Shown one piece after another: positions 1,690 to 34,550 of a stretch of DNA of 64,000 nt. The translations under genes and the position numbers were made by a program. The DNA is from Amphiscolops sp. MND2022 (taxonomy: Eukaryota): contig OZ076409.1 of NCBI GenBank assembly GCA_964187785.1, positions 61,010,001-61,074,000 on the forward strand. The letters are read 5' to 3'. Positions within the stretch are counted from its first letter, which is position 1. Each line of letters starts with the position of its first letter. Below the pieces are notes generated by a model. It saw nothing but the letters and a program-made list of their open reading frames with translations, ran no database searches and was not told where the DNA came from.

Positions 1690-1816
1690 TAATTTCAGTT
1701 TATGTTATTTGACACTAATTTTGTTTTTATGTTATTTGCATTTGTTATTTGGTACGTAATCAGCCTTTAAACATCTCCCCTGATTTTAAAGATGCATTCA
1801 AAATTAGGCAAAACTT

Positions 1817-2350: not shown

Positions 2351-2544
2351 CTTGTGTCTTATTTTCCCCTGCGGTCGCTTGGGGAGGGGGCATTTTGCGC
2401 AATTAATGACGAAATACAATTACCTTTGAAAAAGACGGCATGGTAAAAGCCATTTACAATTAAATAATTAGAACCAAACACTTTAATCTAACTTTATTCT
2501 GACATCAAAGCAGTATTTCAACCAATAAGGGTTAACCAAAAAGT

Positions 2545-2985: not shown

Positions 2986-3319
2986 ACACAACCAGTACCC
3001 CTGAAATCAAATCCAGTACAGCAGAAATCCAGAGAAGAAATTAAAAGCCCTCTCGAGCCACTCTTTCACTACTGCTTCAACAGAAGAAACTTGTTGATTT
3101 GTTCTTTTCATTTATATTTTTGTATTTAGATGATCAATTAATTTTATTCATATACAGTCATTTTCGATGCAAAGCTCTAAATTGTTTGAGTTACCGTAGA
3201 CCGAGAAACGCGCAGAGAGAGGAAGATGAATTATATATTGCACAAATATTCGTGGACAAAAAAGTAAAGCTAGAGCCAGTAAATTTGGCTAACGAAGTCC
3301 TAGTCTAATTAAAACAAAA

Positions 3320-3770
3320 CATTGAAAACAAGTTGGCAAGGCATTTTGATGTAAAATGGCATTTGTTCATAATTGTCTTTTTGTCAAAATATGGCAGATT
3401 TTTATCAACTGCCATTTTTCGAAAGCATTTCACGAATGAGCTAGTTCTTGAATGGTCCTAAAATGATTGTGGAAAGTAAGACCATATCGTTATACATGTG
3501 TCGTGGAAACCGCATACTAATCTTAAACTGTAAGAAAACAACTACCAAAGGGGGTAGTACGTCAATATTTAAATCTGACTGTATTTTCCTGGTTTCCACC
3601 ATTTTGAGCATATTGTCTTGGATTCCACCAAAATAGCATTCACTGTTCGATGGCCACGAAAGCGACTGTGGAAAGTAGGACCATATCATTATACATGTGT
3701 CGTGGAAACCATATACATATCTTAAACTGTACGAAAACAACTACCAAAGGGGGTAGTACGTCAATATGTA
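3320..3770 (-). repeat. Family A repeat block, inverted
   Basis: Reverse complement of the 1849-2160 units, followed by the shared TGGCAG-rich flank. Confidence 0.95.
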
Positions 3771-3794
3771 AAAGTATGTAACAGTATGTATTTT

Positions 3795-3910
3795 AAAAAC
3801 CAAGGAAGGAGCCAAAATCTCCAGATTACCTGCGCCTTGGCGTGAGAAATTTAACTCGTTTAGTGTCGATACTAGAAATTACCTTTACATGGATGAACGG
3901 TTGGTTATCC
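3795..3910 (+). pseudogene. Short gypsy pol fragment
   Basis: Translates KTKEGAKISRLPAPWREKFNSFSVDTRNYLYMDERLVI, homologous to KINRLPTPWREKYKCLSLDANDFVYMDERLVI in ORF 17418-17930. Confidence 0.8.
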
Positions 3911-4106
3911 TGTTAACTCGGAGAAGATATGGTAAGAAAGATGAATTAAAAGTAATACAAACACAATCGTTAATGTATGAACTATTCACTATCTGTATCA
4001 TAGAGTTCGACTTCAACTAATGTTCATACTGTAAAGTTCTTCATCGTAGACATTGGCAGGTACTATGAACTAATTAGTTCATCTTTTTAGTGACGTCTAC
4101 TTCTCA
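3911..4106 (-). repeat. Putative 3' LTR of the minus-strand gypsy element
   Basis: Bounded by TG (3911) and CA (4105-4106). A polypurine tract (GGGGGGAA on minus, 4107-4114) abuts it, and it lies downstream of the integrase ORF. Confidence 0.65.
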
Positions 4107-4261
4107 TTCCCCCCTTTGTAAATCAGGGAAACCATTGTTGAGCTTCTGTGGGTTCCCACTTGACTTTGGCATCGGCTGTTGGGTTTTCCTTTTTGATTTT
4201 CGGAAAGGGTTGTCGCAGGAATCGTTGTAGTGGGCTGGAGAACTCTAAACGACTTAACCAA

Positions 4262-6412
4262 TTAGAAATACTCTACCCCTCCTAACTTTACAGTTCGTTT
4301 AGCGCCTTTTATTCTACTTGATCTACGAAGGTCAGGTGACTCTGTTTGCGTTTTATGGTTTTCTAATTCCTTTTTGTCTACTATTTTTAAGTTACCTCTT
4401 TTAGGGTTTGTTTTCCCTTTCTTCGGAGTGGCGTCGGTATTCGCAGTGGCCCGTATTGGCGTCTGCTGTTCGCCTTCCGGTTGTTTCGGTTGTGCGCCGT
4501 AACTGGTGCTACATTGTACCGGCGTAGACGGTGGCGGTGTGCGTATCTCGGGTGTGGTTTCTTCTTCGGGCCGTAGTGTTTCCGCTGTGACGGTAGTGTT
4601 ACTTGCTTGCGGTCCCTGTTCTTCCGTTGATTTGTCTTGTCCGTTGCTTGTTACTATGACATCGCCGTAGGTCGATCTTTTCTCTGGCATTGTTGGAAGG
4701 GTGTAGCTGCATCCCGGTTCATCGGTGGTACCGTATACTCGTTTGTGGGTATCGCAGTACTTTCCTTGGCTAAATTTTCCGCATCTGGCACAGCGGTTTG
4801 TGGGTTTCCTCTTTTCCTCTGACTTTTTCGGCAGCTGAAATTTTATCGGTTTCGAAGCTAATTTTTTATGAATTATTTTTCCGTCTGATGTTGTTATAGT
4901 GTGTTTGGTTTCATTCACGGCTGTCAGTATCTTGTTGGTTTTAAATTTGCATTTCATTGCGTTTGGTTTGTTTTCTTTTTCAAAAAATTGGTACTGTTTA
5001 AATTCCTTGCTTACCGATCTGTTTCTTTTCTTCGAGTCGTTAAGAATCAGATAGTCTGCCATTTCTCCCTCTGAGTCGTTGATTGTAAACATCTGTAGCT
5101 CAGTGGGTTGTGCTGAAACGTAATTGGTCAGTGTCTTTTTCCAATTGGATAGAAGACATTCTGATCGGCCGATTAGACTGGTTATTGCCGTGCGTGGCTT
5201 ACGTCCGTAGTGCATTTGGAATGGCGTCATATTCAACTTACTATGCGGAGTTTGTCTAATTGTTTTGATTGCCAATTTAACACCTTCTTCAAATGTTAGG
5301 CCGTCTGCCATATTAGCTCTAGTTAATGACTTAATTGTCCGTATCGTTCTTTCTACATGTAGATTCGGTGTACATCTAATGCGTTTTATATTTTCTTGGT
5401 TACAAAATTCTTTGAATTCGTTACTTTTAAAACAACTACCGTTGTCGGTGCGTACGCTCCGTGGTGTCCCGTTATCTGAACAGTATTCCGTTAAAAATTT
5501 TAAAACTGTCCGTGTGTCGGTGTTTTTACAAATTTTGGCGGTGGGCCATTTGCTAAAACGGTCGACTGCGACTAAAATATATACATCGCCGCGAGTCTTT
5601 GATTTTATTGGACCGGCAAAGTCCAATTGTATTTCTTGATTCGGTTCGGACAAATTTTCTAAATAGTTTTTCTCCGTTGACGGTAATTGCGTTGTTAAAT
5701 TCTTACCTGACGACCTGCAGCTGGGACAGTTTTCCGCTTTTTCCTTTATCTCCCGATAGAGGCCTGGCCACCAGAAGGCTGTGGATAATTGCTCCATCTT
5801 TGTGGCCGATGGGTGTCCTTGATGGAGCATGGCGATGATTGTGCTTCTCATTGCTTCGGGTATAACGATCTTGTCGTTATAGAAGAGTAGGCCGAATCGG
5901 GTTGTCAGGTGATGTCTGTGTGGCCGATAGGGATAAAAGATCCCCTCAATCTGGTTCTTTTCGACGGCAGTGATAGCATTCAAGATTTTTGTGTCTCTCG
6001 CCGTTTCTTCTACTAACATCGGCAAGTCAAGTGCAAAATCTTTTTCGACTTTCTTGATGGTTTCCTCTGTCCGCTCATTGTGTTCGTCGTCTAGGTTGTT
6101 CGTCTTTACAGTTTGTTTCAGTCGGATTAGGTTTATTGTTTCGTGTTTCCGAAACTTTTTGATGGCGTTTGTGGGACATTTTTCTTGTGTGACATTGCTC
6201 GTTTGGCTTTCAGTGTCGGATGATTGTGCTATCCACGATTCATAATTGTTCTGTTGGAACTCTTTCAGTGGCGTCGTACCCAGCGTATCGCAAAAACTGA
6301 AGAATCTGTTGTATATTTGTACATTTAATTCAACAATTCTTTTTCGTACTTGCTGTGAGGGTCGGTATTCTTGAAGTCTTTCGTTGTCTGTCCCTTTTCC
6401 CACGATTCTCAA
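4262..6412 (-). CDS. pol: Gypsy integrase region (HHCC zinc finger + rve core), frameshifted from upstream pol
   Basis: HQGH...CPSC, QLDFAGP, VDRFSKW, TDNG and VERTIRTIK motifs. Confidence 0.9.
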   Translation of the reverse strand: MRIVGKGTDNERLQEYRPSQQVRKRIVELNVQIYNRFFSFCDTLGTTPLKEFQQNNYESWIAQSSDTESQTSNVTQEKCPTNAIKKFRKHETINLIRLKQTVKTNNLDDEHNERTEETIKKVEKDFALDLPMLVEETARDTKILNAITAVEKNQIEGIFYPYRPHRHHLTTRFGLLFYNDKIVIPEAMRSTIIAMLHQGHPSATKMEQLSTAFWWPGLYREIKEKAENCPSCRSSGKNLTTQLPSTEKNYLENLSEPNQEIQLDFAGPIKSKTRGDVYILVAVDRFSKWPTAKICKNTDTRTVLKFLTEYCSDNGTPRSVRTDNGSCFKSNEFKEFCNQENIKRIRCTPNLHVERTIRTIKSLTRANMADGLTFEEGVKLAIKTIRQTPHSKLNMTPFQMHYGRKPRTAITSLIGRSECLLSNWKKTLTNYVSAQPTELQMFTINDSEGEMADYLILNDSKKRNRSVSKEFKQYQFFEKENKPNAMKCKFKTNKILTAVNETKHTITTSDGKIIHKKLASKPIKFQLPKKSEEKRKPTNRCARCGKFSQGKYCDTHKRVYGTTDEPGCSYTLPTMPEKRSTYGDVIVTSNGQDKSTEEQGPQASNTTVTAETLRPEEETTPEIRTPPPSTPVQCSTSYGAQPKQPEGEQQTPIRATANTDATPKKGKTNPKRGNLKIVDKKELENHKTQTESPDLRRSSRIKGAKRTVKLGGVEYF

Positions 6413-7429
6413 TTTTTCGGGTTTCAGTAGTCTCTTTCTCTCTGTCCAGAGTCTGAAGGTGTCTGGTGAATGCCCTCTTTTCTTGAATATGAAGTCATGT
6501 CAATTCCGTTTATTTTGTCCATATTGGATGGCTTTACTGATCTATTTGAAGAATTCACGGATGCGATTTGATTAACACCGTTCAGTGGTATCGAAGTTTC
6601 GAGCAATTGAGTTTGTCTATTTTGTTCACGCTTACATGTGCCGTGTTGTGATTGGTCGATTTTTTGTCTCGGCTTTGTTCGTTCTGTGAATCGTTTTATG
6701 CTTACGTTCGTTTGAATGAAATCGAATAAGCCGTGTATTTGGTTTATTACGAACTCTTCTTCGGATTCCGTTTCGTTTTGACCGTTAAAGTTATTCTCCG
6801 CTGCGCTTTCATCGGTGTTTACGATCGGGTGTCGGCTTAAGTAGTCCGTCAATGGGATGTTTTTACCGGCGGTATATTGAACATTTACATCGAAGTGGCT
6901 TAATCTGTCTAACCACCGTGTTAACCTGGCGCTGTACTGTTTGTGCACCCTGTTCCGTTTTAGCAACGGTTGTAGGACAGGTTATTCTTGGACAGGTTAT
7001 TGATGAACTTCTGTATTTTTTTTGTGGTTTTGTTTAATTCCGCTGTATTAATTATAGGCGGTATTATCGTTACCGGAGAGCCAGTGTCAATAATAAATTC
7101 TATTGGCTGTCCTTGGACCAATAGTATCGCTTTGTAGAAGTCGATCCGATTTATGCCGTTGACGGATTGGATGTGATCAATTTCGGGCCATGATTCGGTG
7201 TCACTGTCCGTTGACGGTTCTTTTTGTATCCGGCTGACGGTCTTGGATTTACACACTTTGGCAAAGTGACCCATCTTCTTGCAGTTATTACACTGTGCTC
7301 TCCGTGCTGGGCAAATATGTTCCATTGACCAATTTGGTTTACCGCAAAAGCGACAATTACGATTTGATATTTTCTTCTTCCACGTTTCGGTGGTTTTTTG
7401 TTTCCGTATTGGTTGTGTGTTTCGACCGT

Positions 7430-7872
7430 TTCGACGCTTTGGGAATCCGCCGAATGAAATGCAAAACAATACGTTTAGTTGCTGTTGCCTTAACTTCGAG
7501 ATACAGTTCATAATACATTGTTATCTCCCCTTCTTTTCTTCTTGAGTACTGCCTCTCAGCTGTCTTTAACAACCTCACTTGACGTCTCTGACCCTTCTAG
7601 TACCTCTTCCTCAATTGGCAATTCGGCCTCATTTAGCATTTCTTGACTATTTGGCAAGTTGGCTTGTTTTGGCTTTTCTTCTTCACTGCTGCTATTTTCA
7701 TCTTCCGATACTCCCTGCCTTTTTGACGGTCCCGGGTTATTCGCCTCTTTTCTCTCGATTGCTATATCTCTTTGGGATAATACCACAGGGCTTCCTCGGC
7801 TTGGCAGAATTGTCACAGTATGGTCCGATTCTCTAATTGGCTGAGCCGTTTTCCTTTTGAATGTTTCCTCCA
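7430..7872 (-). pseudogene. 3' tail fragment of another gypsy integrase ORF
   Basis: EETFKRKTAQPIRESDHTVTILP resembles ERAYKKKKGVLLEQSNHTINFLP in ORF 16225-16959. It abuts family B repeats at 7873. Confidence 0.55.
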
Positions 7873-8260
7873 ATTTTTTTACTCACGATTGGGACCAAAA
7901 TATCACAAAACCTTTTTTTCATTTTAGTATTCTAAAAGGCCTCCTTTTTGACCTCACGAAAGATATTATGGACATATTTCGTCCCTCTGACTTCTTCTAG
8001 CAACGAAATTCGGTTAAAAAAGTATTTCAAAGGTGAAATTATTCGTGAATAATTTTGGTCCCAATCGTGAGTAATTTTTTTACTCACGATTGGGACCAAA
8101 ATATCAAAAAATCTTTTTTTCATTTTAGTATTCTGAAAGGCCTCCTTTTTGTCCTCACGAAAGATATTATGGACATATTTCGTCCCTCTGACTTCTTCTA
8201 GCAACGGAACTCGGCTAAAAGTAATTCAAAGGTGAAATTAATCTTGAATAATTTTGGTCA
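7873..8260 (+). repeat. Family B tandem repeat (~201-bp unit, 2 units) with hairpin junction
   Basis: ACTCACGATTGGGACCAAAA at 7881 and 8082; perfect 22-bp-arm inverted repeat at 8053-8101. Confidence 0.9.
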
Positions 8261-8772
8261 CAAATTGTCACAAAGTTTGATCCTGGTTTCACAAAATTAT
8301 TGACTGATCTTACATTGTTTTTTTAATAACATGGCAGTCATACGAAATGTCACTCAAAATCAAAATTTGGCAGATTATGCTAAACTACTAATTGTTAGAA
8401 TGGTTACAATTTATCATGTTTTGATCCTCCAGTATGTCAGATGACTCTCATCCTTTTATGGTAAGCTATAGTTCGATAATTTGAAGCAAACCCGTGAACA
8501 GTTTCTAACTACATGCACACTTGTCAAAAGAGAACGCTACTCTCTCTCCTGATTCCTTGGTCAACCATAGTCCGTGAAAAGTCACGTTTAGTTCGTAATT
8601 TGCAATTTTGTGCTACCTACATGTAGTTGAGTAACTGCTCGTTTATTTATCATTTCTTGTTGAAACTTTGTTTGATTTTGATTCATTGCCACTTTTGCTA
8701 CTTCATTCCTCTTTGTGCAAGGCTCTCGAGACATACTTATCTATCCGAACTCTCAATACTCAAGGTAAGGGT

Positions 8773-10378
8773 TTAAATATTGACGTACTACCACCTTTGG
8801 TAGTTGTTTTCTCAAAGTTTAGGATATGTATGCGGTTTCCACGACACATGTATAAAGTTAGGGTCTTACTTTCCACAGTCGTTTTAGCTCATTCGTTGAA
8901 TGTGATACTACGAAAATGGCAGTTTATCAAAATCTGCCAGATTTTGATGACAAGCTAGATAATATTAAACGCCATGTTATTCGAAAACGCCATTCAAACA
9001 TTGAGAAATTTTTCCTTGACCATAGGACGGCATAATGGATTTTAAATTTTGACGTACTACAATACAGTCAGAATTAAACCTTGTGTCTTATTTTCCCCTG
9101 CGGTCGCTTGGGGAGGGGGCATTTTGCGCAATTAATGACGAAATACAATTACCTTTGAAAAAGACGGCATGGTAAAAGCCATTTACAATTAAATAATTAG
9201 AACCAAACACTTTAATCTAACTTTATTCTGACATCAAAGCAGTATTTCAACCAATAAGGGTTAACCAAAAAGTTTGGCTTTCAATTACATTTCTTTCATT
9301 CTTGCCAAACAAACTCAAACGATCCAGTCTCTATTCTTTTTTGTCATCATTCAGTCTCTTGTTCTGCCATCAATCAGCCTCTCTTACCAGGTCATCTGTA
9401 CTCGGTTTCTCCGCAAACCCTCTTCTGCACCCAGTCTCTCTCCACAATTCATACATCTGTACTCATTTTCGCTTCTTGCTTCAATGGATAAAGTCATCTC
9501 ACAAAATGGCGAAAACGGAGTTAACAAATTACCTGGAAAGTCGCATGCCCCACGCAAAGTTGGGTTTTGCTACTACTGCCAAGTGTTCTACCCCAACGGG
9601 AAAACAAAGTACGAAGTTACCCAAAAAAACACGTACGATGAAGAGATCATTTTCGATGACATCTGGAGACCGAACAATAATCTTCACGTCAAGCCTTTTA
9701 GGGCTCAGCTCTAAACAGAACCAGTACCCCTGAAATCAAATCCAGTACAGCAGAAATCCAAAGAAGAAATTATAAGCCCTCTCGAGCCACTCTTTCACTA
9801 CTGCTTCAACAGAAGAAACTTGTTGATTTGTTCTTTTCATATATATTTTTGTATTTAGATGATCAATTAATTTTATTCATATACAGTCATTTTCGATGCA
9901 AAGCTCTAAATTGTTTGAGTTACCGTAGACCGAGAAACGCGCAGAGAGAGGAAGATGAATTATATATTGCACAAATACTCGTGGACAAAAAAGTAGAGCT
10001 AGAGCCAGTAAATTTGGCTAACGATGTCCTAGTCTAATTAAAACAAAACATTGAAAACAAGTTGGCAAGGCATTTTGATGTAAAATGGCATTTGTTCATA
10101 ATTGTCTTTTTGTCAAAATATGGCAGATTTTTATCAACTGCCAATTTTCGAAAGCATTTCACGAATGAGCTAGTTCTTGAATGGTCCTAAAACGATTGTG
10201 GAAAGTAAGACCATATCGTTATACATGTGTCGTGGAAACCGCATACTAATCTTAAACTGTAAGAAAACAACTACCAAAGGGGGTAGTACGTCAATATTTA
10301 AATCTGACTGTAATGTCCTGGTTTCCACCATTTTGAGCATATTGTCTTGGATTCCACCAAAATAGCATTCACTGTTCA
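8773..10378 (+). repeat. Near-identical duplicate of cassette ~2044-3648 (A(+) / small ORF / A(-))
   Basis: Constant offset of 6729. ORF 9274-9714 translates identically to 2545-2985, and there are only scattered SNPs. Confidence 0.95.
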
Positions 10379-10826
10379 ATGTCTAACAATTCTGAGTCTT
10401 TAACAAAGTAATACAATGTAAAATTTGGTTTCGAAGTTATGCAAGTTTTTGCTAGGCAGTATTCCATTGCTAGCTAACAATTAATTAGAATCCTAATTAC
10501 GGACAAGTGAGATCAACAATTTCTCTTTGTTCAGCTATTGCTATTGAACCGTGAATCAGAACAATTTGAAGCTGAATATGAACATTGTAAACGCGACCAG
10601 GCCGCCCATATTTTGTCCCCGGTGTCCCAACCATCATGACATGTAATAGCAACGAATACTTTTCTCCTTGACTTGTAATAAACACAAAATTTGTCTCAAA
10701 AGTCCTAGTCTCACGAAAACACCTATCAATTTTGCATGGCATTTTTTGAAAACATGGCATTTATTCATAACTGTCTTGTCATTAAATGTGGCAGATTTTG
10801 ATCAATTGCCATTTTTTCATTAGCAC
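10379..10826. repeat. Inter-repeat spacer module C, copy 1 (others at 14211-14659 and inverted at ~31485-32060)
   Basis: Near-identical 87-codon frames at 10497-10760(-), 14329-14592(-) and 31552-31815(+). Confidence 0.9.
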
Positions 10827-11397
10827 TCAACGAATGAGCTCGTTTTTGAATGGTCCCAAAACGACTATAGAAAGTAAGACCATATCTTTATACATGTGTC
10901 GTGGAAACCGCATACTAATCTTAAACTGTAAGAAAACAACTACCAAAGGGGGTAGTACGTCAATATTTAAATCTGACTGTAATGTCCTGGTTTCCACCAT
11001 TTTGAGCATATTGTCTTGGATTCCACCAAAATAGCATTCACTGTTCGATGGCCACGAAAGCGACTGTGGAAAGTAGGACCGTATCAGTATACATGTGTCG
11101 TGGAAACCACATACATATCTTAAACTGTAAGAAAACAACTACCAAAGGGGGTAGTACGTCAATATTTAAATCTGACTGTAATGTCCTGGTTTCCACCATT
11201 TTGAGCATATTGTCTTGGATTCCACCAAAATAGCATTCACTGTTCGATGGCCACGAAAGCGACTGTGGAAAGTAGGACCGTATCAGTATACATGTGTCGT
11301 GGAAACCACATACATATCTTAAACTGTAAGAAAACAACTACCAAAGGGGGTAGTACGTCAATATTCAAATCTGACTGTTTTGTCTAGGTTTCCACCA
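10827..11397 (-). repeat. Family A tandem array, ~2.7 units
   Basis: GCCACGAAAGCGACTGTGG at 11051 and 11250 gives a period of 199. Confidence 0.95.
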
Positions 11398-11478
11398 GTG
11401 TGAGTTTATTGTCCATTTTGAGGACTTTAAAAAAATTCAATGCAAATGATGTTTTTCTTTTTTAAACCTATATTCCAG

Positions 11479-14400
11479 ATGTCTGATCAGGCTTGCTCAT
11501 CGCAGTCACAAGCAGTGACGTGTGAGAAATGCGGGCAGTTGTTGCCAAATACTGAAAGGCAGAATGAAGCACCATCATACAAGAAGTACAAAAAAAGCTC
11601 GACCAACCTATTTTCTTGTACCAATGGCACCTGTGATTACGTCACTGATCGGTTGTTCAACCTCCAGCGTCATGAGAAGCAGTGCCCAGGAATGCCCTAT
11701 GAGGACTGGAAGAAAAAAGAACTGACCTGTGAGAATTGTGGACAGTTATTCACTAATAAGAAAAGTCGGATGCGTCATCAAAAGAACGCTAAGTACTGTG
11801 TCAAGCAGAAAGCCAAAATTGATGCCGGCATAGAAGTCTCCATGTACAAATATCGTAAGTTATTTAGCCTTACTGAAATTATTGAGTTTTTCGCTCGAAT
11901 ACTTATGATCTGGAAAGATATAAAGAACGGGCGGGGGGTTTGGGAGGAAGATTAACAAAAAATCCAAATCAAAATGTTTACACATGTTTGTTTTCCAGCA
12001 GCTGCAAAAGGTCGTCAAAAAAGTCCCCATATTTGTCTGAGTTGTGGCAAGTTGTTCGCGTACCAGTACGTACTCCGGAATCACGTCGCAAGATCACTAT
12101 CTTGCCAAGTAGCCCTAGCTCCAATGCCTGTTGATGTCACCTTCTCAGAGTATCCCCCATCTCCTTTTGGTACCACAGGGTACTTTGAATTTTGCGAGAG
12201 AATTCCTCTGGAATGTGGGTTTTCTTTCGACGAGTGGCAGGGCCCTCAGGAGAATCCAAGTGTGCATTTAGGCTCTCTGTTGCAACACGGCATACCTCTG
12301 CTTTGGAAAAGTGGTGCAAACCATTGTCCTGGTATACAGCTTCCCAAAGTTGACAGGAGTGCGCATTTTCCCAGTGAAGTCCAGCAACTCCTGATGGCAT
12401 CAAATTTGACTGATCCGGAGCAGCAACTAGATGTGAAATCGGCAAAGATCGGCACTGTAAGTTTTTCATTATCTTTTCGCAAAAATACTGTCTTTTAAAA
12501 AACCAAAATGTCTCGTATATTGGATTCATGTAGTGTTTTATCTATTTTTTTCACATTTCACCATGGTTATTATTTCACAAAAATTATTCATTACCTCTCT
12601 CCAATAAAACGATATGAATACTTCCTAGTTTCAGACGCAATCTCTATCCATACCGGAGTTCGTAGATGTTTTGAATTCATGTGACCCTGATGACGTGAAG
12701 TATCCACTGAATGTTATTGATATCAGGATGAAGCCAAAAGTGAGTTGGGAAACTTGATGAAAGAATAACCTCATTTTTCAACTATTTTCATTTTTTAAAC
12801 TAAGTTTTTGTGTTTAAGAAGCTGTACACAGTCCCAAAGATGGTGAGAGACAATTCCATTGGTCACCTGGTTGAAAAACTCATTGGGAAGACTAGCCTCG
12901 AGCCTTATTCATGTGCCACTTCATATTATCTGCTGATTACGCAGGACTCAGCGCACACAACTTGGCACCAAGACTTTTCAGCAACTTCTGTTTGCTATAC
13001 TGTTCTTCGTGGCGAGAAAATTTTTTTCTTGGTCAAGCCAACAAAAAAGAATATGGCAATCTTCGAGAAATGGTCAGATGCAGAAAATGACCAAACGTAA
13101 GCGTTTTTAATTGAAACTAACGAAGAGTTTTTGAATTTTATAAGAGTTGATTATAAATTTATAAATTAATTTTTTTCAACGAAACAACGGACACCAATAA
13201 CTACAGAAACAGTGCATAAAAACTAGTTTTGATTTAGTTTGATGTTTCAGGCCCACATTCTTTGGTGCCATCAATGAACTGGAAGAAGGATGCCTCCGAC
13301 TCAATGTTACACCCAGTGACATGCTAGTTATGCCTGCCAACTACCTTCATTTTGTCCTCACGAAAGGTATTATGGTCTTCTTTAGTCTCTTTGAGTTATG
13401 AAAGAAGTGTCAGTTGGTCTTTTTCGTAATTCGCTTTTACGTACACTTGACTAATTCTGAACGAATTTAGCTGACGATCTCTTTCTAGTGTTGGATTCAT
13501 TTTTGTAATTTTGGCGTTTTTTCCGGTATTGGCACGATGCATAATTTTGCCACAACTTAATACTTTCTTTTTCACTCTACAGTGTCAATACTCGTTTGCA
13601 TGTTTTCCGCGTTCGATTTACACTCTCTCGCGATTTGATTGGTCCGTTTCTTCTCGCCAATACCGTCCGTTTTAATTCGTTTGTGAACTTGTCTACTACC
13701 TTTACGGTGAACCAATCTTTGAATAATTCCTCAGATTGAATGATTGATCCTTCACATTAGGAAGGATGCCTTGACAAATAGTCAGCTATTCCCAGAGTTC
13801 TCCCCGGTGTTTGTTCAATATGAAAATCGTACGGCAAAAACCGATCTACCCAGGCTTTAAAAAGTCTTTGTCTCACGAAAACATTGAAAACAATTTTGCA
13901 AGGCATTTTATTAAAAATTGCATTTATTTATTACTGTCTTGTCATCGAAGTATGACAGATTTCTGTCAACTGCCATTTTTCATAAGCATTTAACAAATGA
14001 GTTCGTTCTTGAATGGTCCTAAAACGATTGTGGAAAGTAAGACCATAACGTTATACATGTGTCGTGGAAACCGCATACTAATCTTAAACTGTAAGAAAAC
14101 AACTACCAAAGGGGGTAGTACGTCAATATTTAAATCTGACTGTAATGTCCTGGTTTCCACCATTTTGAGCATATTGTCTTGGATTCCACCAAAATAGCAT
14201 TCACTGTTCAATGTCTAACAATTCTGAGTCTTTAACAAAGTAATACAATGTAAAATTTGGTTTCGAAGTTATGCAAGTTTTTGCTAGGCAGTATTCCATT
14301 GCTAGCTAACAATTAATTAGAATCCTAATTACGGACAAGTGAGATCAACAATTTCTCTTTGTTCAGCTATTGCTATTGAACCGTGAATCAGAACAATTTG

Positions 14401-15757
14401 AAGCTGAATATGAACATTGTAAACGCGACCAGGCCGCCCATATTTTGTCCCCGGTGTCCCAACCATCATGACATGTAATAGCAACGAATACTTTTCTCCT
14501 TGACTTGTAATAAACACAAAATTTGTCTCAAAAGTCCTAGTCTCACGAAAACACCTATCAATTTTGCATGGCATTTTTTGAAAACATGGCATTTATTCAT
14601 AACTGTCTTGTCATCAAAATGTGGCAGATTTTGATCAATTGCCATTTTTTCATTAGCACTCAACGAATGAGCTCGTTCTTGAATGGTCCCAAAACGACTA
14701 TAGAAAGTAAGACCATATCTTTATACATGTGTCGTGGAAACCGCATACTAATCTTAAACTGTAAGAAAACAACTACCAAAGGGGGTAGTACGTCAATATT
14801 TAAATCTGACTGTATTGTCCTGGTTTCCACCATTTTGAGCATATTGTCTTGGATTCCACCAAAATAGCATTCACTGTTCGATGGCCACGAAAGCGACTGT
14901 GGAAAGTAGGACCATATCTTTATACATGTGTCGTGGAAACCATATACATATCTTAAACTGTAAGAAAACAACTACCAAAGGGGGTACGTCAACATTCAAA
15001 TCTGACAGTTTTGTACTGGTTTCCACCAAAAAATTTTTTTACTCACGATTGGAACCAAAAAATAATTCTGTCTTTCCTCAATCAAATCGTTACAGGTGAC
15101 TCAATTGCAGTGGGGACCAATTTTTTGGCCCTTGGACACATTCCTATGATACGGGAGATGATGATCCTTGACCATTCGAGGACTTACGCGGATGACAAAT
15201 TCCCTGATCTTCCCGAGCTGCTGGCATTGCTTCTTCTCACTGCAACAGAAAAAATTCAGAGAGCTTGTCCTTTCAAGTTTCGTTTGTTCGACGCAGTTAA
15301 AACAATTGTTAATGAAAAGGCCGTCCAGGAGGTTTTTACAATTTGACTTGAAAAACTGTTCATTTTAAATTCATAGTGTTTCACTTGTTCAACTTATTTT
15401 CTTTTTAATTTGCAGATTCATCCACAGTTTTGCATGAGCAAGTTGCGATTGCTTCTGGGCAGGAAACAACCAACCGGAACCCTCCAAGATGCCACAATCT
15501 CCAAAAAATATCTGGCGTGCGTCAGCATTAAATGTCCCGGTGACTCCTACGCAACCATCCCCGATTACATTAACAATGTAGATGTTCTGAGTGAGTCGCG
15601 CGAGACCCGTGTCTCGACAGTTGAACTTCTGAGGGAGAATTCGCAAACTCCAAAGTTTTGCGAAAACAAATTTCGACCTCATGCACTACCGATTATGGCT
15701 TCACTAAAAGGCATTAGAACTATCCCTAAAGAGGATGAACTCTTTGATATATGTTGA
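11479..15757 (+). CDS. C2H2 zinc-finger + JmjC histone-demethylase-like protein (KDM2/KDM7-PHF8-like), 7 exons, ~636 aa
   Basis: Exons 11479-11854, 11999-12456, 12635-12739, 12819-13096, 13251-13366, 15096-15331 and 15416-15757 join in frame via GT-AG. Motifs: CTNGTC..LQRHEKQC, CENC..RHQK, CLSC..RNH; TTWHQDFSATSVCYTVLRGEKIFFLVKPT; MPANYLHFVLT; GDSIAVGTNFL. The HxD...H metal triad is intact. Confidence 0.88.
13400..13852 (-). pseudogene. Gypsy pol (RNase H C-terminal) fragment inside JmjC intron 5
   Basis: Minus strand reads WVDRFLPYDFHIEQTPGRTLGIADYLSRHPS*. The left boundary is approximate. Confidence 0.8.
13853..15062 (-). repeat. A(-) / spacer C / A(-) module plus a half family B hairpin, within JmjC intron 5
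   Basis: 13993-14990 duplicates ~10170-11160; TTTTACTCACGATTGGAACCAAAA at ~15037-15060. Confidence 0.92.
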
Positions 15758-15914
15758 CTGTTTTTATTCACCATTATTCTATTTGTTTTCAAGGTTGTCA
15801 TTCAACAGAGTTTCTAGTTTCTTTTCCTTCTTGAAATTTTAAATATAAAAAATTGCAAATTAGAAAACGAAATGTGAAACCATTGGATTCACAAATTACC
15901 ACATTTTTCAATTC

Positions 15915-18000
15915 TGTATGAGACAAAAATAAGAAACAAGCAATCTATCTGTTACTGTTGACGATGACTTCTACTAAGTCCTAAGTCTAGATGCTGTACC
16001 GTGTTTGTCATTTATGTTTGTCAACAACTAGACACTTTTCTTATTTGAATGAGGTCAGTTTCGAGAGTATAGCGTAGCCTCTCTCACATCCCCCGATTTA
16101 ACACAAATTTGTATTTATTGTACAGGCGTGTAATAATATAAATTGTACAATTGCCAATTTACGAAACTGAAAATTTTTCTTCTTCTAAGAGTAGTTTGTA
16201 GATTTTACAGAGTAGTTTGTAGGTTTAGTTTTCATCGTTTTCTTCTTCTCTTCTCGGGCTTTTGGTTATTTGTGAAACCATTATGTTGTTGCCAAAGAAG
16301 TCGGTTTTGGGCCGGTTTCTGTTTCCTCGGCGTGGTGGGTTCGGCAGTTGTTGTACTTCGTTTTGATTGGTAGTGTCTATCATGGTTGCTGGGTTTTGCT
16401 CGCTTCTGTTGTCTTCTTCTTCATTGTCTTGCTTTTTTTCTTTGATATTGGGTTCGGCTTCTTGTTGTGGCCACATCTCTTCTTCTGATTCGCTTCCGAT
16501 TTCTGTGATTTGTTCTGGTTTTTGATTTTGTTTTGCTCTTTTCATCTTCTTCCCCTCCTTTGTTTTCTTTACTTTTTGCTTTAGTTGTTCTAGTGCTGAT
16601 TTCTTTTTTCGTCGCTGTTCTGTTGTTGGAGTTGGCGGGCGTGATGTTTCTGGCAAGTTCATGGTGATTGGCAGGTCATCTCTTGTTGCCACTTCTGAGC
16701 TGCTGTCGTCCTCGCTTGTGAATGGCTGGTTTCCCGCCAATGCCGTGCCTGTATTTTGTGACGCTAGTTGCTTTGTTGCTTCGCGGGAGCAGCATGGTTG
16801 GTTGGTGTTGTTCGCCACGTCGCGTTTGGAGATGATCGTTGGCTGATTTCTGCCTGCTGGCAGGAAGTTTATTGTATGATTCGATTGCTCGAGCAGTACC
16901 CCCTTCTTTTTCTTGTAGGCCCTCTCAAGCTTTGTGCCTCTTGTCCTCTCGCGTACCATGATAGTTGAGTCCTGTCCCGACTCGAAGTCTGTGTCGCTGA
17001 GTTGGATGGCTGGCTGTGGTTGATCTGAAATATTCCGAAACGAATTTAGTCTCTCTATTTTGCCATTTCCGCGGTGGTCCCTTTCTGGACATTCTATGTG
17101 GCGGATTAGTCGTTTTTGGCAAAATTCCTAAATCGCCTACTTCGGAAAATTGTCGCCGGGTCCGTTCTTATGGTCTGTGGAATTCCGTGCCTTGTAATAT
17201 AGTTCTTTAAAACTTCTATTACCTTTTCTGTGGTTGGCTTTCTTAAAAACTTTGCTTCCGGCAATCCCGAAAAGTGATATACTGATACTAAAAGGTACTT
17301 TTTTGCGTTTATGGCGTTTTGGAATGGGCCGGCGAAGTCAATTGCTATCTCTTGATTACATTCTTTACTTTCAGGCAATTTCCCTATTTGTTTTTGGCTA
17401 AGTATTGTTTTTATGTTCTAACCAGATTCTTTGCATTGGGGGCATTCTCTGGCGATTGTGACTACCTCTCGATGCAGTCTTGGCCACCACACATTAGAAA
17501 TTGTTGCCAACATGGCATCTCGCCCCGGGTGCCCGTAGTGCAGTGATCTCATGATGATTGGTCTTAGCGTCTTGGGGATTACTAATCTTTCGTCCATGTA
17601 GACGAAGTCGTTGGCATCTAAGCTGAGGCACTTGTACTTCTCTCTCCATGGTGTGGGGAGGCGGTTGATTTTCGTGCTGTCTGGTCTTTTGAGCAATCCG
17701 ATAATTTTTTGCATGAATTCGTCTGATTCATACTGTGCTGCAAACGTGTGATTTCCCAGTTGCTGTAGTACTTCAATTTGATTTATGGAGTAACAAATAG
17801 GGCTTTTTATTGGTGGCATAATTGCCGCTTGAATTATATCATCGTTCATTTCTGCGTGATTATCAGATTCGACTTGTCGCTCGCTTTTGCTTGTGGAAGA
17901 CTGCGTTTTAATTACTGACCGATTAGCCAATCAGAAGCGAGAACGAGTATTTACCGTATCAGAGCAAAACGGCAGTTCGCTTCAAAATGCCAAAACAGAC
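15915..18000 (-). mobile_element. Degenerate gypsy 3' half (integrase fragments, PPT, possible short LTR ~15915-16088)
   Basis: HYGHPG..CPQC (17418-17930), IDFAGP..TDP (17106-17378), C-terminal tail 16225-16959. GGGGGA-TG junction at ~16088-16094 on minus. Confidence 0.85.
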
Positions 18001-18354
18001 AAAAGCTTCAAGTTTGACGAAAACGCAGACAGCGTGGATTGAATCGAATTGAATAAACAGAAGAAGCCGAAATTAAAAACTGAGTACCCTGTAAAAACCT
18101 AAACAATTGTTACATCATTATTTATGTAGCTAATTGGTAAGCCAACTAGCATTTTAGTTTGTGTTACGATTTTCGTAAATTGTAATGTAAATTGAGTGAC
18201 ATTGACATTGAATAAACCCACAGATTGTAACCCCTGATCTTTGATCATAATAATAAGAAAAAGATAAAATAATCATTCACGCCATAACATGATGATCTGT
18301 CAATTCATTTGCCATATTATTTAGGTTTGCCAGACTTGAAAATAGCGTTGATAA

Positions 18355-21352
18355 CTATAGAAAAATTTTGTTCAGAGTGTTTTCCGTCATGTTAGGCAGA
18401 TCAGCCTCGAATGCGTTCAGTGTAGAAATAAGACGTTCGACGCCTACTGATATGCAACTCACAAAGGCGTAAATATCTATCTGCGAAGGGTCTGAATTAC
18501 CTTTAACACAAACCTGTGAGAAAAACAGTAACATGTTAAACAACCCGCCTAAAGATTCAAAAGAAGTTGAGCAGAAGATTTCAATTGAGGATAGCATTAA
18601 GTACAGTAAACAATACATGCTTTGAGTCACATATTCCTTACTCTATAACACACAATGAAATCGAGTTTGTAGAGGTACAGGACGTTGGGTTTGTCATTAG
18701 ATTCTCCTTCATTGTAAACTGGTTTGATATAAGGATCGATAACTATCTGAACACTTGAAGTGACCACGACATGCTACGAAGCTACATCGAATCATGAAAA
18801 ATCCGAATTCACGATGTTCAGTGAACCTCAATATTTTGATGAAAGCATCTTCACCTTCTTTGTTACTTGCGATCACGTCCCATCGTTTCCCAAGCACACT
18901 GTCCCATGACTGATTAGACCCTTTGAAGTCATTGCTGATATCCCCAGAAAATTTCACTGTTTCTTTCGAGGACGTCGTTTCAAAACCACACATTTTACGG
19001 GTCAATGGCGTCGCTGGAATCAATGATTTTGTCATTGAATGTTTTTTCTGGGCGAATCCAACCATCTTTTTGACTGCTGAAAACACCGCGAATGCTTGGT
19101 TAATAGGATGAACTAGCATGTGGATATTGAATTCTTCTATTTCGTCTTCGATAACTTGAACTTCTAGTGCGGGCATGCGTACTTCAATATCGGGGTTTGT
19201 TTTTCCTATCATTTTAACAAACGCTTTTCGTTTGCTGCAATCAAAGAACAGTTCTTTTACTTCAAACGCCGCGTTTGCATAGTTGGTGAGAGACCCAACT
19301 TTCAGGATGTTGTTATAGCATGGCGCATACTTCAACTCAACATTCTCGTCACTGTGTGGTATCAAAGATACTGCATCCACAAAAGGTATTGTTTTTGGGG
19401 GGCATCGCTTTTTTGGTACGGGAGGCCTGGAATCGATTATGGTCGGAGGTGATTCAGGTTCTTCGTTGGTGTCATCTGGAGCAGTCTCATCAGGCAAGCT
19501 TGCCCGTAATTGTCGATAAGAGACAAAAAATTGTTTTCCTTCGTCATCAACGACCAAGCACTGTCGCAGGAACGGATCGTTGATCATCACTGTCGCAGTA
19601 ACAACTGACCCGCAGCAAGTAACCTCGCAATTTTCGAAGTCGCCGATACAGTCACAATCTTCGTCATTTGATTGCCAAAAGAAAACTTCGTCATTGCGCA
19701 TTAACTTCCTTGGATTGAAAGGCAAGCTTCTACCCCGTTTGTTTCTCAGAGATTCATCCAGTTTTTGGGCTTTTCTAATATTCCAACGTCGCTGAAAAAA
19801 TTTGAAAATTACTTCTCGATTTTCAAATTTCTATCAACTTCAATCATGGGTTTCTTTGAAAAAAAATTATGTGGAGGATATCAACACGTGGATTGTCATT
19901 GAAATCTGGCAGATTTTGCTAAACTGCCATTTTTCCATAAACATTCAACGAATGAGTTCGTTCTTGAATGGTCCTAAAACGATTGTGGAAAGTAAGACCA
20001 TATCGTTATACATGTGTCGTGGAAACCGCATACTAATCTAAAACTGTAAGAAAACAACTACCAAAGGGGGTAGTACGTCAATATTTAAATCTGACTGTAA
20101 TGTCCTGGTTTCCACCATTTTGAGCATATTGTTTTGGATTCCACCAAAATAGCATTCACTGTTCGATGGCCACGAAAGCGACTGTGGAAAGTAGGACCAT
20201 ATCATTATACATGTGTCGTGGAAACCATATACATATCTTAAACTGTACGAAAACAACTACCAAAGGGGGTAGTACGTCAATATATAATTCTGACTGTATT
20301 ATTGTACGTCAATAATGAAATTTTGATATACCGTATTAGTGTCATGGAAAATTTGCTCAAAATTCAATGACGTTTTAGAATATTCTGACGTTTGTTTATC
20401 TCTGGCTAAAAATTGAAAACTGGCAGATTTTGATGAAGTGGTACATTTTTGATTGGTTAGCATTTTTAGAGGCCGGCTTTTAATCGCTCGAAAGATATTA
20501 TGGACATGATTTGTCTCTCTGACTTCTAGTAGCAACCAATTTTGCCTGAAAAAGCAATTCAAAGGTGAAACTAATCACGAATAATTTTGGTCCCAATCGT
20601 GAGTAATTTTTTTACTCACGATTGGGACCAAAATATCACAAAATCTTTTTTCAATTTAGTATACTAAAAGGCCTCCTTTTTGTCCTCACGAAAGATATTG
20701 AGGACATGTTTTGTCTCTCTAACTTCTAATAGCAACGAATTTCGGCTAAAAAAGTAGTTCAAAGGGGAAATTAGTCATGATTAATTTTGGTCCCAATCGT
20801 GAGTAAGTTTCTTACTCACGATTGGGACACAAATATCACGAAATCTTTTAAATTGGAACCATGATTTAACTTTCATTTTTTGAATTTCCATGCTGGAAGT
20901 AGGACTTCTCAATTTTTGATTTTAAATGCTAGCCCTATTTATAAGTAGTATGTCAAGGTTTAAATCTCAATTTTCGGTTTTGCCCTCGGGAAATTTATGA
21001 TTTTCTTGTTTGGCATTTTCTACTGATTTGGCATTTTCGAATATCTGGCTTGTCGTCCAAGTTTGGCAAACTTTGTTAAACTTCCGGTTCTAGTTTGTTC
21101 ACTCCGACGTATGAGCTTAGCAAGGTATTCAATTTTAAAGTTCGATTTGTGTATTTTTTGTCCTCAAAACCTGTTTAGTATTTCATCGGAACTATGGCCT
21201 AAGAAATGAGAGAATTGTGGAAAATATTTCGAAAAAAAGTATTGAAATGTTATAGCAACCTCATCTTCCCTGTCGACTTCTGGCACTGTTATGTCAACTG
21301 CTTTTCTCGTAGACCACTCCATCCATTTGATTCTGACACTCCAGTCACTCAT
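18355..21352 (-). CDS. Unknown protein gene (core ORF 18709-19725), probably spliced, with one apparent frameshift
   Basis: Acceptor TTTTTTCAG precedes 19791 in frame with the 338-aa ORF. Candidate first exon is 21352-21260 (weak GTTGCT donor). A shifted frame from ~18755 runs to a GTAAGG donor (18641), and the last exon 18513-18355 is in phase. Confidence 0.55.
19890..20835 (-). repeat. Composite A + B repeat block
   Basis: A units at 19950-20300; B units with hairpins at 20585-20633 and ~20785-20829 (period 200). The block is the reverse complement of ~33445-34320. Confidence 0.92.
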
Positions 21353-22004
21353 GATTGCAGTGATTTTTGCAAGCTCCCAAATAAATGTTAGAGGGTCCAG
21401 GATATGGACAACTTCGTTCGTTTCGAACTTTTGAAGAAGTATTACTGCGTTTAAAGGTTGAATAGTTTGAGACTGACTGGAATAGTCACCTTATCAATAG
21501 TTCAATTAACGTCCACTGGGGAAATAAAGAGAAATTCCATTTCCTGCGTCAATTTCAAAGCTGGGGCAAAATGACGCCGCTTATAATTGAAGCAGAGGTG
21601 ATGCTTAATTACTGTTGCTGCTCAGATCCAATGAACACCCACTGGCAAAGTAAAGTAGTGCCTGGCAATTGATGGCATATTCAATTGGGGCGTCAAGTCG
21701 ACACCGCTTATGATGAGGCGGCAAGTTGAAACCGCTTAGGATTGAAGTAGGGACGATGCTTACTGTTTATCCTAAGGTTCAATTAATACTCACCTTTGAA
21801 ATTAATTAGGAGATCTTTGGGGCATTTCATCGCCGCCTATAATTAAAAAAGATGACGCTCGATTTTGGTTGATAGCGATTGTTTGATAAAGATTTGCTCA
21901 GTTTCTTTCAAACCATTTTCACAATCAGTAGCTTCCAGTCTTCTCGAATATACATCACAGTTCCTTCCAAGTTTTTGAATCGCTTGGTTGCAACTGAATA
22001 ACTA

Positions 22005-25000
22005 ATGGATAATTCAAATCCCCAAAATCAAACTCCTGCTCAAGATCTACCATTGTCCTACTCATCTGTTTTAAGCCAGTTCTCGACTCCATTGACAAAC
22101 TTGACCCCATGGTTGCTCGAATCCTCAACTCCTTTGCTCAGCGGAAGTTCTGAAGCTTCTTTGACAAATTCGACACCCTCATTCGATGCAACAGTCTACC
22201 CGCAGAGCTCGCAGACATTTTTCACGCAGATCTCGCAGAGCTCGCAGAGCTCGATTGCTTACAATGCAGATGGGATTATGCAAGAAGAGCATCACGAGCC
22301 AAATCAGCCGGTCGAAGATCACGCGGTAACTCCTTCTCCTAATCTTGACATTTCCAATGCCGTGGGTTTAACCAGCGCCACAGTTCCGACCTCGAGTCAG
22401 AAACAACCTGTTGACTCGTTTGAAGAAAGAGTCTACAATGTAGTCAAAACAACTCCCCCTGCAAAAAAAAGCAAACCCGACTTGAAGACGGATGAAGCCA
22501 AAGAATGGCTGAAATCCTTTATAGTTGCCACAACGAGCCGTTACAAAAAGAATGTTAGCGCCCCGAAGAAGACCCAGATAAACTTTTTCAGAAGTCTGGT
22601 GGCCTACCTGTTTTTGTTTGTTGGCGTTGCTGGCCTGTTGGACAAAGAAATCAGCAATATCACTGTCCACGAGTTGGCTCAAGCCGTGGTGCATATGAGA
22701 GACTACCCGGATGATGAAGACATACCACTTTCCATCGAGCCAAATGAAAGTAAGTATTTATGCATAACCTAAACCCTTAACCTCTTAAACTTTTATTGAC
22801 TTTTTCAAACATATGATGAAAATCAAAGTAGCTATCAATTTTGAATGATCCAAACAACAATTGGATATATTGTCCTGGTTTCCACCACCGTTTTGAGCAT
22901 AATGTCCTGGATTCCACCAAAATAGCATTCACTGTTCGATGGCGCATTGGTAAAAAAATAGCATGCTCCGAATGTTTTTCCAAGTTGGATTTCGGCACCT
23001 TCACTCTAAATTCATTGGGTTTCGGCGTTTTTGGCAATTCTCGGCTGTGCCGAAAATTAACATTCCTAGTTGATAATAATTACTTTGCCCTTTCATTTAC
23101 AAAGAAGGGAATATGGCAGAGCGTGAGGAAGTTGTAAGTGGCGATATCTAGATTGTTGGTAAACAACCAATAATTGCCATTCTGAAGGAAAATGGCAAAA
23201 TAGATGAAAGGGTCAATTGACCTTACTTTGCCATAATACACAGTTCGCACTATTCTTTTCTCTACAACAGAAATATTAGAAACATTGCTCAATGTTCGAA
23301 TTGCGTTTTAAAATATCTTAAACTGTAAGAAAACAACAATTTTGAGCATATTGTCTTGGATTCCACCAAAATAGCATTCACTGTTCGATGGCCACGAAAG
23401 CGACTGTGGAAAGTAAGACCATATCATTATACATGTGTCGTGGAAACCATATACATATCTTAAACTGTAAGAAAACAACTACCAAAGGGGGTAGTACGTC
23501 AAAATTTAAAACCTTATAAACCGTCCTATTGTCATGGAAATATTGTTCAGTGTTGAATGGCGTTGTGAAATAACTTTGTTTGTTTTTTCAATAAATTTTG
23601 TTTAGGTGTCAGATTTCCGATTGATTAGAGTTCTTAAAGGCGAAAATATTTTGGGCCTATTTTGTCTTTCTGACAAATGAAATTTTAAAAAAAACTGAAA
23701 ACTCGAAACTAATTTACATGTTCAATAACTGTCTTTTTTGCAGATTCTGTTTCTCGAATACATTACAAGACACCACGCTGGTTAATCGAAGGTTTGGTTG
23801 AGTATGCCAGCCACACGAGACCTGATTTTCTCAACAAAACCCAAGGTGTGAAATTCCAACGATGTGTCTCCAAAAGTGATGACCGACCAGTCGTGACAGA
23901 GCTCCTGTTCGTCAATTCTGTTGGGAAGTCTTGTTTTAGACCAAGCCATGTTGTCGACCAGTATTTGATCCCTGTACGTTTGTTTTTTTTTGACATTTAA
24001 ATTTTTATATATTTCGGAGTTTTCAAAACAACTTCGATTGAAAAACCTACATCTACTAAACCATTGTAGTTCTAGTGTAACAGATCATATATTTAATCGA
24101 AAGCATGTATTTCAGATACTTCAACAATGTGAAAAACCAGCCAATCAGCTGAAGTTCAAATTGGAACTCATCTATCCAATTGTTGACGACCCTGAAGCAC
24201 GATTGCCAAAATTGAAAAATCAAATCAGGGAAGTGCAAGGAAAATTTGGCAATGAATTTGACCAGGATACCATCAAAACATGCGTGAGAAAACATCAAGA
24301 TGCTCAACGATACGCACGACAGTCAGCTCGAGCCACAACGTTCTTCAAATACATGAACGGGAAATGTGACTTGAACATCTTGGAGAAAAGAATCGAAGGA
24401 TTTTTCCAGAGGCAGAAATGTACAACCCCAGAAGACGTCAAACAGGATATTAGAAAAGTGTTTCTGTTGGTTTTACCTATGCTACAAAATCCAGATTCGA
24501 GACGAATGGGCAGTGATGGTTCTGTCAAAATAATGTATAAAGGGATGGCACATAACATGGATTTCGAGTGTCAGACCTTACTATTCGAACGATGTGACAC
24601 GCAGAGCTGGCCAGGCGTTTGTCCAGCCAATTTCAAATCTTATGGACGCGGAGTGGTCAGCACACAGAAGTTTTTTAAAAACGAGATTGTGCTTGACTAC
24701 CACGGTCAAATACTTGAGAAAATGACATTGATACAAGCTCTGGCGATGGAAGGCGTACAGTCTGAATATCTGATGGAGGTACGTAATCTAAAGTTTATTT
24801 GTTAGATACATACCAAGTGAGTGAAGACACATAAAAAATCTAAAAAGTCTAAAAAGTATGAGTATTTGTTCTTTTATCAATTTTGGACCTAGAGAGCTAA
24901 AAGTGAAGAAGAAAAAAATTATTAGTTCACTAGGACCTAGCTAAATGAAAGTACACGAAACTTTTTTGCTTTTCAAAACAGGATTTTTTAGTATGCTGTT

Positions 25001-34487: not shown

Positions 34488-34550
34488 CCTATTTTCTCAA
34501 TTTATAAAAGAGGAAATGTTATATAGCAAATAACAAATCGTCCAATCAGA

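Follow-up and report, generated by a model that had tools for sequence, protein, structure and literature searches.

Why should a gene for a JmjC demethylase fitted with zinc fingers lie among tandem repeats, upstream of a second chromatin-enzyme gene and a transposase? The question is raised by a 64,000-nucleotide stretch of Amphiscolops sp. MND2022 DNA (assembly GCA_964187785.1, contig OZ076409.1, forward-strand positions 61,010,001 to 61,074,000), which we call the window and in which all coordinates below are counted. An earlier model-made reading of the letters alone, here termed the sequence-only reading, had drawn attention to a gene at 11479..15757 as a finger-bearing demethylase that might recognise the repeats of its own mobile element. 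We think it probable, with some reservation, that this gene is cargo of a transposon whose transposase has the RAG1/Transib (CMCT) fold, that it is carried together with a SET-domain gene, and that it encodes a working Fe(II)/2-oxoglutarate lysine demethylase.

Enumeration of GT-AG splice sites gives an open protein of about 636 amino acids from seven plus-strand exons at 11479..15757. Of 6912 possible pairings of donors and acceptors, 48 keep the frame open; they include the strongest-looking sites of junctions 1-5, which are in phase, in keeping with the claim that all seven exons join in one frame; the exon-6 donor is ambiguous, the candidates being three weak GTs of one common phase. Exon 1 (11479..11854) holds a broken finger, F1, and the CCHC fingers F2 and F3; exon 2 (11999/12002-12456) holds the CCHC finger F4 and, after it, the segment that leads into the catalytic module from its N-terminal side; exon 3 (12629/12635-12739) supplies a strand with the equivalents of PHF8 N189 and I191, exon 4 (12819/12822-13096) the JmjC core, and exon 5 (13251-13366) the third Fe ligand. 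Exon 6 (15096-15331, or ending at 15307/15322) would complete the barrel and add a divergent helical tail, and exon 7 (15416-15757) would add 113 C-terminal amino acids that belong to no known family. With so weak a donor at exon 6, the model is least secure in exon 7, whose junction is the least certain of all. An AG stands just before the exon-1 ATG, so an upstream exon is possible, and an AATAAA within intron 2 could conceivably end a short transcript, yet AATAAA is commonplace in AT-rich introns. Among copies of the gene, exon-1 residues differ at 43 of 593 positions (7%) and residues read through an intron at 37 of 175 (21%), which is consistent with coding constraint, though the copies are related. 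The predicted seven-exon structure argues that the gene is real.

The catalytic domain is of the KDM7/PHF8 type. In a search of PDB sequences exon 4 alone matches PHF8 (E 7e-13), KDM7A (4e-12) and KDM2A (1e-7), and its 14 matches comprise 12 sequences, all of the PHF8/KDM7/PHF2/KDM2A type, with no KDM4. When the spliced model is aligned with PHF8-type proteins, all 10 of the 10 PHF8 active-site positions checked are kept: the Fe triad (H-Q-D…H) at H 12966, D 12972 and H 13348 (PHF8 H247, D249 and H319), the 2-oxoglutarate contacts at 12710, 12957, 12996 and 13017 (N189, T244, Y257 and K264), and the methyl-lysine pocket at 12716, 12975 and 15119 (I191, F250 and N333). The sequence-only reading was therefore right in naming a KDM2/KDM7-type JmjC domain with an intact triad. 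It was right also about the missing readers: Pfam returned no match to PHD, CXXC, F-box or JHD, neither for exons 1-6 (E<=1) nor for exon 7 (E<=0.05), and the KDM2-type CXXC, PHD, F-box and LRR that would follow the JmjC domain were not found by Pfam either. CCHC fingers without PHD, CXXC or F-box are indeed an unusual architecture for KDM2/7. The start of the JHD region aligns weakly but collinearly, and helices occupy that region in the structure model of a full-length relative, P0161, whose best matches are PHF8 and KDM7A (E 1.3e-21). With moderate confidence we infer from the conserved residues that the encoded protein is a working Fe(II)/2-oxoglutarate demethylase acting on methyl-lysine. 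The known KDM7 substrates are H3K9me2/1, H3K27me2 and H4K20me1; since the PHF8-type pocket is intact, a mono- or dimethyl-lysine such as that of H3K9me2 is suggested, and we suspect, again with moderate confidence, that the substrate would most likely be a repressive mono- or dimethyl histone mark such as H3K9me2/1. The roles assigned to the PHF8 residues, and the use by PHF8 of its PHD to position the H3K9me2 substrate, are taken from PMC9516565.

Could the gene simply be the host's own KDM7/PHF8 or KDM2 orthologue, as the sequence-only reading had allowed? PHF8 is its best solved-structure match, as an orthologue would have it; against this, its JmjC core shares only 34-37% identity with five PHD-KDM7/PHF8-type proteins, which share 66-87% with one another, PHD, CXXC and JHD were not found, and the gene is multi-copy. 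A quick tree of 136 rows places the protein within a divergent set of 61 rows (SH-aLRT 98), and in a careful tree of 45 rows a branch with support 100/97 splits 18 divergent rows, our protein among them, from 26 canonical rows plus one. These trees leave out P0002 and P0020, which are repetitive artefacts, and 13 short rows; the 45-row tree also leaves out P0044. Grouping the protein with 14 KDM7-like rows is rejected by the approximately unbiased (AU) test (p-AU 1e-6) for a test group that was picked after the first tree. The trees are unrooted and have no outgroup, and the divergent clade is long-branched, so that attraction may have shaped them; because of these features and of the post-hoc test group, we prefer the safer wording that the protein appears to lie outside the PHD-bearing KDM7 orthologues, in an unnamed divergent clade, to the statement that these proteins form one clade. 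We regard an ordinary orthologue as next to impossible.

The fingers depart from the sequence-only reading. Three or four C2H2/C2HC-like fingers had been reported, and three are indeed intact, at 11617 (F2; Cx4Cx12Hx3C) and at 11728 and 12034 (F3 and F4; Cx2Cx12Hx6C), all on the plus strand; the C2H2 label does not fit them, as all three end in Cys, and the fourth is broken. That fourth finger, F1 (11521, +), has two Cys and no His in the open frame, as the result of a compensated frameshift: its His-bearing half is found one base out of frame (+1), where it matches the register of F3 exactly, and some 30 nucleotides later the reading frame recovers. The out-of-frame 7-mer is one of four equally high-scoring words among the 127,515 in the window, another being F3 itself. 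The F1 His is absent from all three copies long enough to cover F1, of seven other exon-1 copies, and the loss is therefore older than the expansion. The intact fingers are spaced in beta-beta-alpha fashion, with basic residues along the side of the helix, they score slightly below the Pfam zf-C2H2 cut-off (24.1 against 25.2 bits), and they are separated by gaps of 14 and about 28 residues with no tandem linkers.

Does the fusion of fingers to a KDM7-type JmjC domain occur elsewhere? Of 826 matches, those nearest to the protein are fragments without a name in public assemblies; NCBI-type gene sets contain almost no relatives, and none of them has been given a name. A word-indexed search of exon 4 against longer proteins scored none of 61 candidates, and a JmjC-profile locus search of metagenomes gave 1 of 22, an uninformative 12-residue match on a 1-kb contig. 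A Cx2Cx12H finger and a JmjC domain do occur together in a single open reading frame (ORF) in 13 of 39 clade relatives, and in 13 of the 15 of those at least 355 amino acids long, as well as in 26 of 85 further cluster members; these counts are not independent, as the intronless families concerned may derive from few genomes. The fusion thus recurs. The relatives keep a single finger, and of the 39 fingers so counted (13 and 26) 29 end in Cys and 10 in His; the PHD pattern appears in none of 124 clade relatives. In pairwise shuffle tests against the segment that precedes the JmjC domain in intronless relatives, the part of exon 2 that follows F4 scores z 4.0-8.1 with five of eight, and the same part gives z <=1.1 against seven canonical and three other divergent proteins; HMM and hhalign profile comparisons of exon 2 with that segment returned no match. 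The matches of one further profile were not used, as the window exons are part of its alignment and the result would be circular. We take the exon-2 alignment, which places F4 and the beginning of the catalytic module in one exon, as moderate evidence for the fusion, and the single-ORF relatives as a second line of support. The intronless single-finger JmjC families (P0161-P0195, P0245-P0327) themselves form clusters of 14-31 variants on many contigs.

Is the gene mobile, and what moves it? An exact look-up finds five of nine window ORFs in the protein collection. Exons 1 and 2 fall in one mixed cluster of 31 variants (seven exon-1 and eight exon-2 ORFs among the 15 members listed), exon 6 in one of 29, exon 7 in one of 10, the first exon of the SET gene in one of 30, and one more ORF in a cluster of 4; a relative of the window transposase that is 98% identical to it, P0196, belongs to a cluster of 93 variants, beside which there are further clusters. 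The copies are spread over many contigs of up to 1 Mb. A host gene family expanded in this lineage, or cargo domesticated for a developmental or germ-line function, with transposons adjacent by chance, would account for six introns, open frames and the constraint seen among copies. It fits poorly with near-identical copies on many contigs, some of them frameshifted or truncated, and with the near absence of relatives from NCBI-type gene sets, and we consider it very unlikely.

The preferred reading, that the gene is transposon cargo, draws instead on the company it keeps. Downstream, in the same orientation, come a SET-domain gene of four exons (22005-22749, 23744-~23973, ~24116-24778 and 25490-25732) and a two-exon transposase gene (26728-26955 and 27363-30743). 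Pieces of the JmjC gene occur on 4 of 15 SET contigs and on 3 of 20 transposase contigs, all three genes occur on two contigs, and SET gene and transposase share four. A control of 68 contigs of the intronless families, similar in total size (11.1 versus 10.5 Mb), shares none with the 15 SET or the 20 transposase contigs, with the proviso that control and test sets have one contig size in common and that the control may not come wholly from the same assembly. These shared contigs argue strongly that JmjC gene, SET gene and transposase move together, and it is probable, as the sequence-only reading had supposed, that the JmjC gene sits on a mobile element.

A number of observations pull the other way. 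Contigs of equal size were counted as one and the same contig, and 10-15 members are listed per cluster, each by its longest contig, which favours long contigs; the overlaps expected by chance are 0.1-1.05, giving Poisson p from 0.09 to 4e-6 if the genome is assumed to be 0.2-1 Gb. No transposase piece is present on 29 of the 32 JmjC contigs listed, and transposase variants outnumber those of the cargo genes. The interval from the JmjC gene to the SET gene contains remains of Gypsy elements and ORFs without explanation, so that nested, separate insertions are possible. A scan of the window for terminal inverted repeats and target-site duplications gave 410 candidate pairs, of which the 60 inspected were almost all palindromes internal to the repeats, and defined no ends; the end structure to be expected of RAGL elements is given in PMC10629977. 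On the side of the protein, exon 6 has no JHD match in Pfam, finger F1 is dead in every copy examined, and several relatives are decayed fragments.

Some of these points would suit an alternative in which the JmjC gene is mobile and multi-copy apart from the transposase's element, on another or non-autonomous element or through segmental duplication in a transposon-dense region. About 11 kb with Gypsy debris separates the JmjC gene from the transposase, no element ends were found, local duplications of 1.2-1.6 kb at 96-99% identity are present, and the intronless finger-JmjC families have no contig in common with any transposase listed. Set against this are three co-oriented open genes, the similar copy numbers of the JmjC and SET genes, the excess of shared contigs over the size-matched control, and a repeat family confined to the span of these genes. 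We judge such a separate unit quite unlikely.

That repeat family has a unit of 199 bp. It occurs in 2.8 tandem units in a block directly upstream of the JmjC gene (10045..11414) and again in a block within intron 5 (13853..15031), the two being 96% identical over 10045-11198 and 13878-15028. It is found between and within the JmjC, SET and transposase genes and not past 34.5 kb, and a 14-bp motif, whose pattern was derived from the repeats themselves, occurs 49 times in the window against 0.24 expected, always within 1935-36099, including sites directly upstream of the JmjC gene and in intron 5. Repeats and motif together, in both orientations, span 1795..36099, the rough extent of the putative element or elements. 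The unit folds only weakly (z -1.85).

Several further repeats lie in or near this span. A second, 200-bp unit resembling a miniature inverted-repeat transposable element (MITE), with inverted ends of about 20 bp, stands head to tail at 7872-8278, 20446-20849 and 33430-33733; one end of this unit, starting CAC, falls at ~15040, just before the exon-6 acceptor, and could relate to the element's termini. Inverted matches of about 700 bp (10473-11171 and 14305-14981 against 31142-31839, 97-98%) flank the JmjC-SET-transposase block, and no target duplication was evident by eye at them. A 232-bp tandem repeat at 35127-35763 is followed by five copies of the 14-bp motif clustered at 35890-36100, which may mark the element's right end. 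An ORF of 373 amino acids at 18709-19830 (-), inside the putative element and without Pfam or PDB match, is possible further cargo.

The transposase reads open for 1202 amino acids. It has no Pfam or PDB sequence match, and its 49 relatives (39-100% identity) carry no informative name; the assignment comes from its structure model (pLDDT 84), which superposes on RAG1 with Z 19.4 (root-mean-square deviation 3.5 over 383 aligned residues), on HzTransib with Z 17.3 and on ProtoRAG with 17.1, and scores far lower, 8.8, with Hermes. Atlas matches to RAG1 (0.78-0.81) were treated as leads only. Its Atlas neighbours come mostly from rotifers and cnidarians, which together with the Gypsy elements and short introns makes an invertebrate animal a likely source. 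Acidic motifs at 28599, 28842, 29055 and 29718 are candidate catalytic positions, a 39-bp coding minisatellite at 27550-28078 varies among copies, and a BRCT-like tail is present, with a BRCT match in 10 of 45 aligned members. PMC12730594 gives CMCT transposases a C(2)C and an H(3-4)H motif, placed after the second D and before the E; the family consensus here has CxCxDxxH and a later His, with no clear H(3-4)H. Judged from the model, the transposase may represent an unnamed CMCT branch.

The SET gene is open for 626-638 amino acids. Its SET domain is above the Pfam cut-off (E 2.5e-7) and weakly matches KMT5A/SETD8 (E 0.04). The N-terminal half of the protein has no Pfam match, and it might resemble a degenerate tyrosine-recombinase fold, although Pfam gives this no support. 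A flavivirus capsid, the top Atlas match for exon 3 (0.95, with low recognition), was rejected as chance. A MITE-like inverted repeat of 267 bp (24996-25262) lies in the last intron.

Interspersed repeat blocks of this kind recall viral homologous regions, and the cargo might in principle be that of an endogenous large DNA virus or a Polinton-like element. There is a precedent in Amoebidium, whose giant-virus insertions contain KDM4-like genes with introns (PMC11244446). The window offers no capsid, polymerase or packaging gene among 30 long ORFs searched with Pfam, the JmjC-profile locus search of IMG/VR gave 0 of 21 pattern matches, and the adjoining transposase is a RAG1-fold DDE enzyme; a viral carrier is, to our mind, hardly credible.

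If the gene is transposon cargo, what are the fingers for? The sequence-only reading proposed a sequence-targeted demethylase, and one may picture fingers that bind DNA directly and aim the enzyme at the 199-bp repeats, making it a sequence-specific anti-silencer on a transposon in the manner of VANC or REF6. Three intact fingers with beta-beta-alpha spacing and a basic helix side, the His ending of 10 of the 39 fingers in relatives, and the abundance of the 14-bp motif, which stands directly upstream of the gene as well as within intron 5, count in its favour. The intact fingers, however, are all CCHC and widely spaced, relatives keep a single finger, and the repeats could equally well be binding sites for the transposase or independent MITE-like inserts. 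The targeting claim is thus not borne out, and we rate direct DNA reading as unlikely. Because CCHC fingers are described as binding protein (PMC10465944), because there is no tandem array, and because relatives need but one finger, we weakly favour recruitment through protein contact, in which the transposase or another factor would read the repeats.

On the preferred reading, a large cut-and-paste transposon of CMCT type, recently multiplied, would carry the JmjC and SET genes. The demethylase would have been derived long ago from the KDM2/KDM7 family, its PHD/CXXC readers exchanged for CCHC fingers. These fingers might bring the enzyme to the element by contacting either the transposase or the SET protein, or else chromatin proteins of the host, and demethylase and SET enzyme might together maintain open chromatin on the element, so that it can be transcribed or can transpose; both suggestions are weak ones. 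By analogy, such an arrangement suggests that the element brings its own tools to rewrite silencing chromatin marks. A bolder version, which we offer as doubtful speculation, is that this is an undescribed giant RAG1-fold transposon lineage, probably animal, equipped with both a writer and an eraser of histone marks (a SET enzyme like KMT5A and a demethylase of KDM7 descent), and that its demethylase comes from a widespread, mobile-element-only clade of CCHC-finger JmjC proteins aimed at the element's own repeat arrays against host silencing, which would make it an enzymatic animal counterpart of plant VANC anti-silencing.

The window is rich in repeats of other kinds too. Decayed Gypsy-type long-terminal-repeat retrotransposons lie on the minus strand at 4262-7520, 16225-17930, 32480-32875, 36260-41211 and 50249-57192, with reverse transcriptase, RNase H, integrase, protease and zinc-knuckle domains (Pfam) where scanned. 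A direct repeat of 1.6 kb (2043-3652 and 8772-10381, 98.8%) surrounds a truncated Gypsy and holds a small ORF of no known family, and 42206-44086 is 97% identical to 56595-58477. At 45999-49472 (+) an ORF of 619 amino acids with a BED/C2H2-like finger and broken frames downstream is perhaps a decayed hAT-like transposase (weak Pfam). A tRNA-like stretch seen by eye at ~34550-34625, possibly the head of a short interspersed element, was not called by ARAGORN.

How does this system compare with those already known? Its nearest counterpart is the KDM7 subfamily (PHF8/KDM7B, KIAA1718/KDM7A, PHF2 and C. elegans KDM7A, with KDM2A next), with which it shares the JmjC fold and the ten active-site positions. 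It differs in having CCHC fingers in place of PHD (or CXXC/F-box), in its 34-37% identity, in the lack of a JHD match, in being multi-copy, and in reading W-H-Q-D-F-S-A-T where KDM7 has F-H-I-D-F-G-G-T; the protein is predicted to work like a KDM7, yet it stands apart from the subfamily in reader domain and phylogeny. Plant REF6/ELF6 also join C2H2 fingers to JmjC, and in Rph1, Gis1 and REF6 the fingers are C-terminal. The likeness to these proteins, including yeast Rph1/Gis1 (PMC4949671), is in outline only: the JmjC domain of Rph1/Gis1/REF6 is KDM4-type with true C2H2 fingers, whereas here it is KDM7-type with N-terminal CCHC fingers, an independent origin. The giant endogenous viral elements of Amoebidium carry divergent, reader-less, intron-bearing and expanded KDM4-like paralogues, for which silencing evasion has been proposed (PMC11244446); these are KDM4 rather than KDM7, consist of JmjC without fingers, and ride on a viral carrier without a DDE transposase. 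The window transposase has the fold of RAG1, Transib and ProtoRAG (Z 17-19) and candidate acidic motifs, at 10-14% identity; unlike them, it shows no evident CxxC and HxxxH zinc motifs in its consensus, it has a BRCT-like tail, and no RAG2-like gene was seen. A BRCT-bearing branch is also defined in the transposase family that gave rise to RAG1, as is a hidden KDM7-derived clade that is absent from named protein sets.

Within the literature searched, to which Repbase Reports and supplements (such as that of PMC12730594) did not belong, no DNA transposon is described as bearing a JmjC gene of KDM7 type or with fingers, nor is a pairing of JmjC and SET genes. Transposon counter-silencing is established in plants (VANC) and has been suggested for fungal TET, oomycete SET and viral KDM4-like genes. 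Should our reading be right, a histone eraser and a writer on an active DNA transposon would extend this arms race to histone marks and could be put to a direct test: both enzymes would be small and soluble, the candidate substrates are defined, and natural copies number in the tens. The closest parallels in kind are the SET genes that HarbingerS and MuDR elements carry in Phytophthora, the TET/JBP genes in fungal CMCT, hAT and KDZ elements, and VANC of VANDAL (PMC12730594). There too an epigenetic enzyme or regulator is borne by a DNA transposon; here a demethylase-type JmjC protein would be paired with a SET enzyme.

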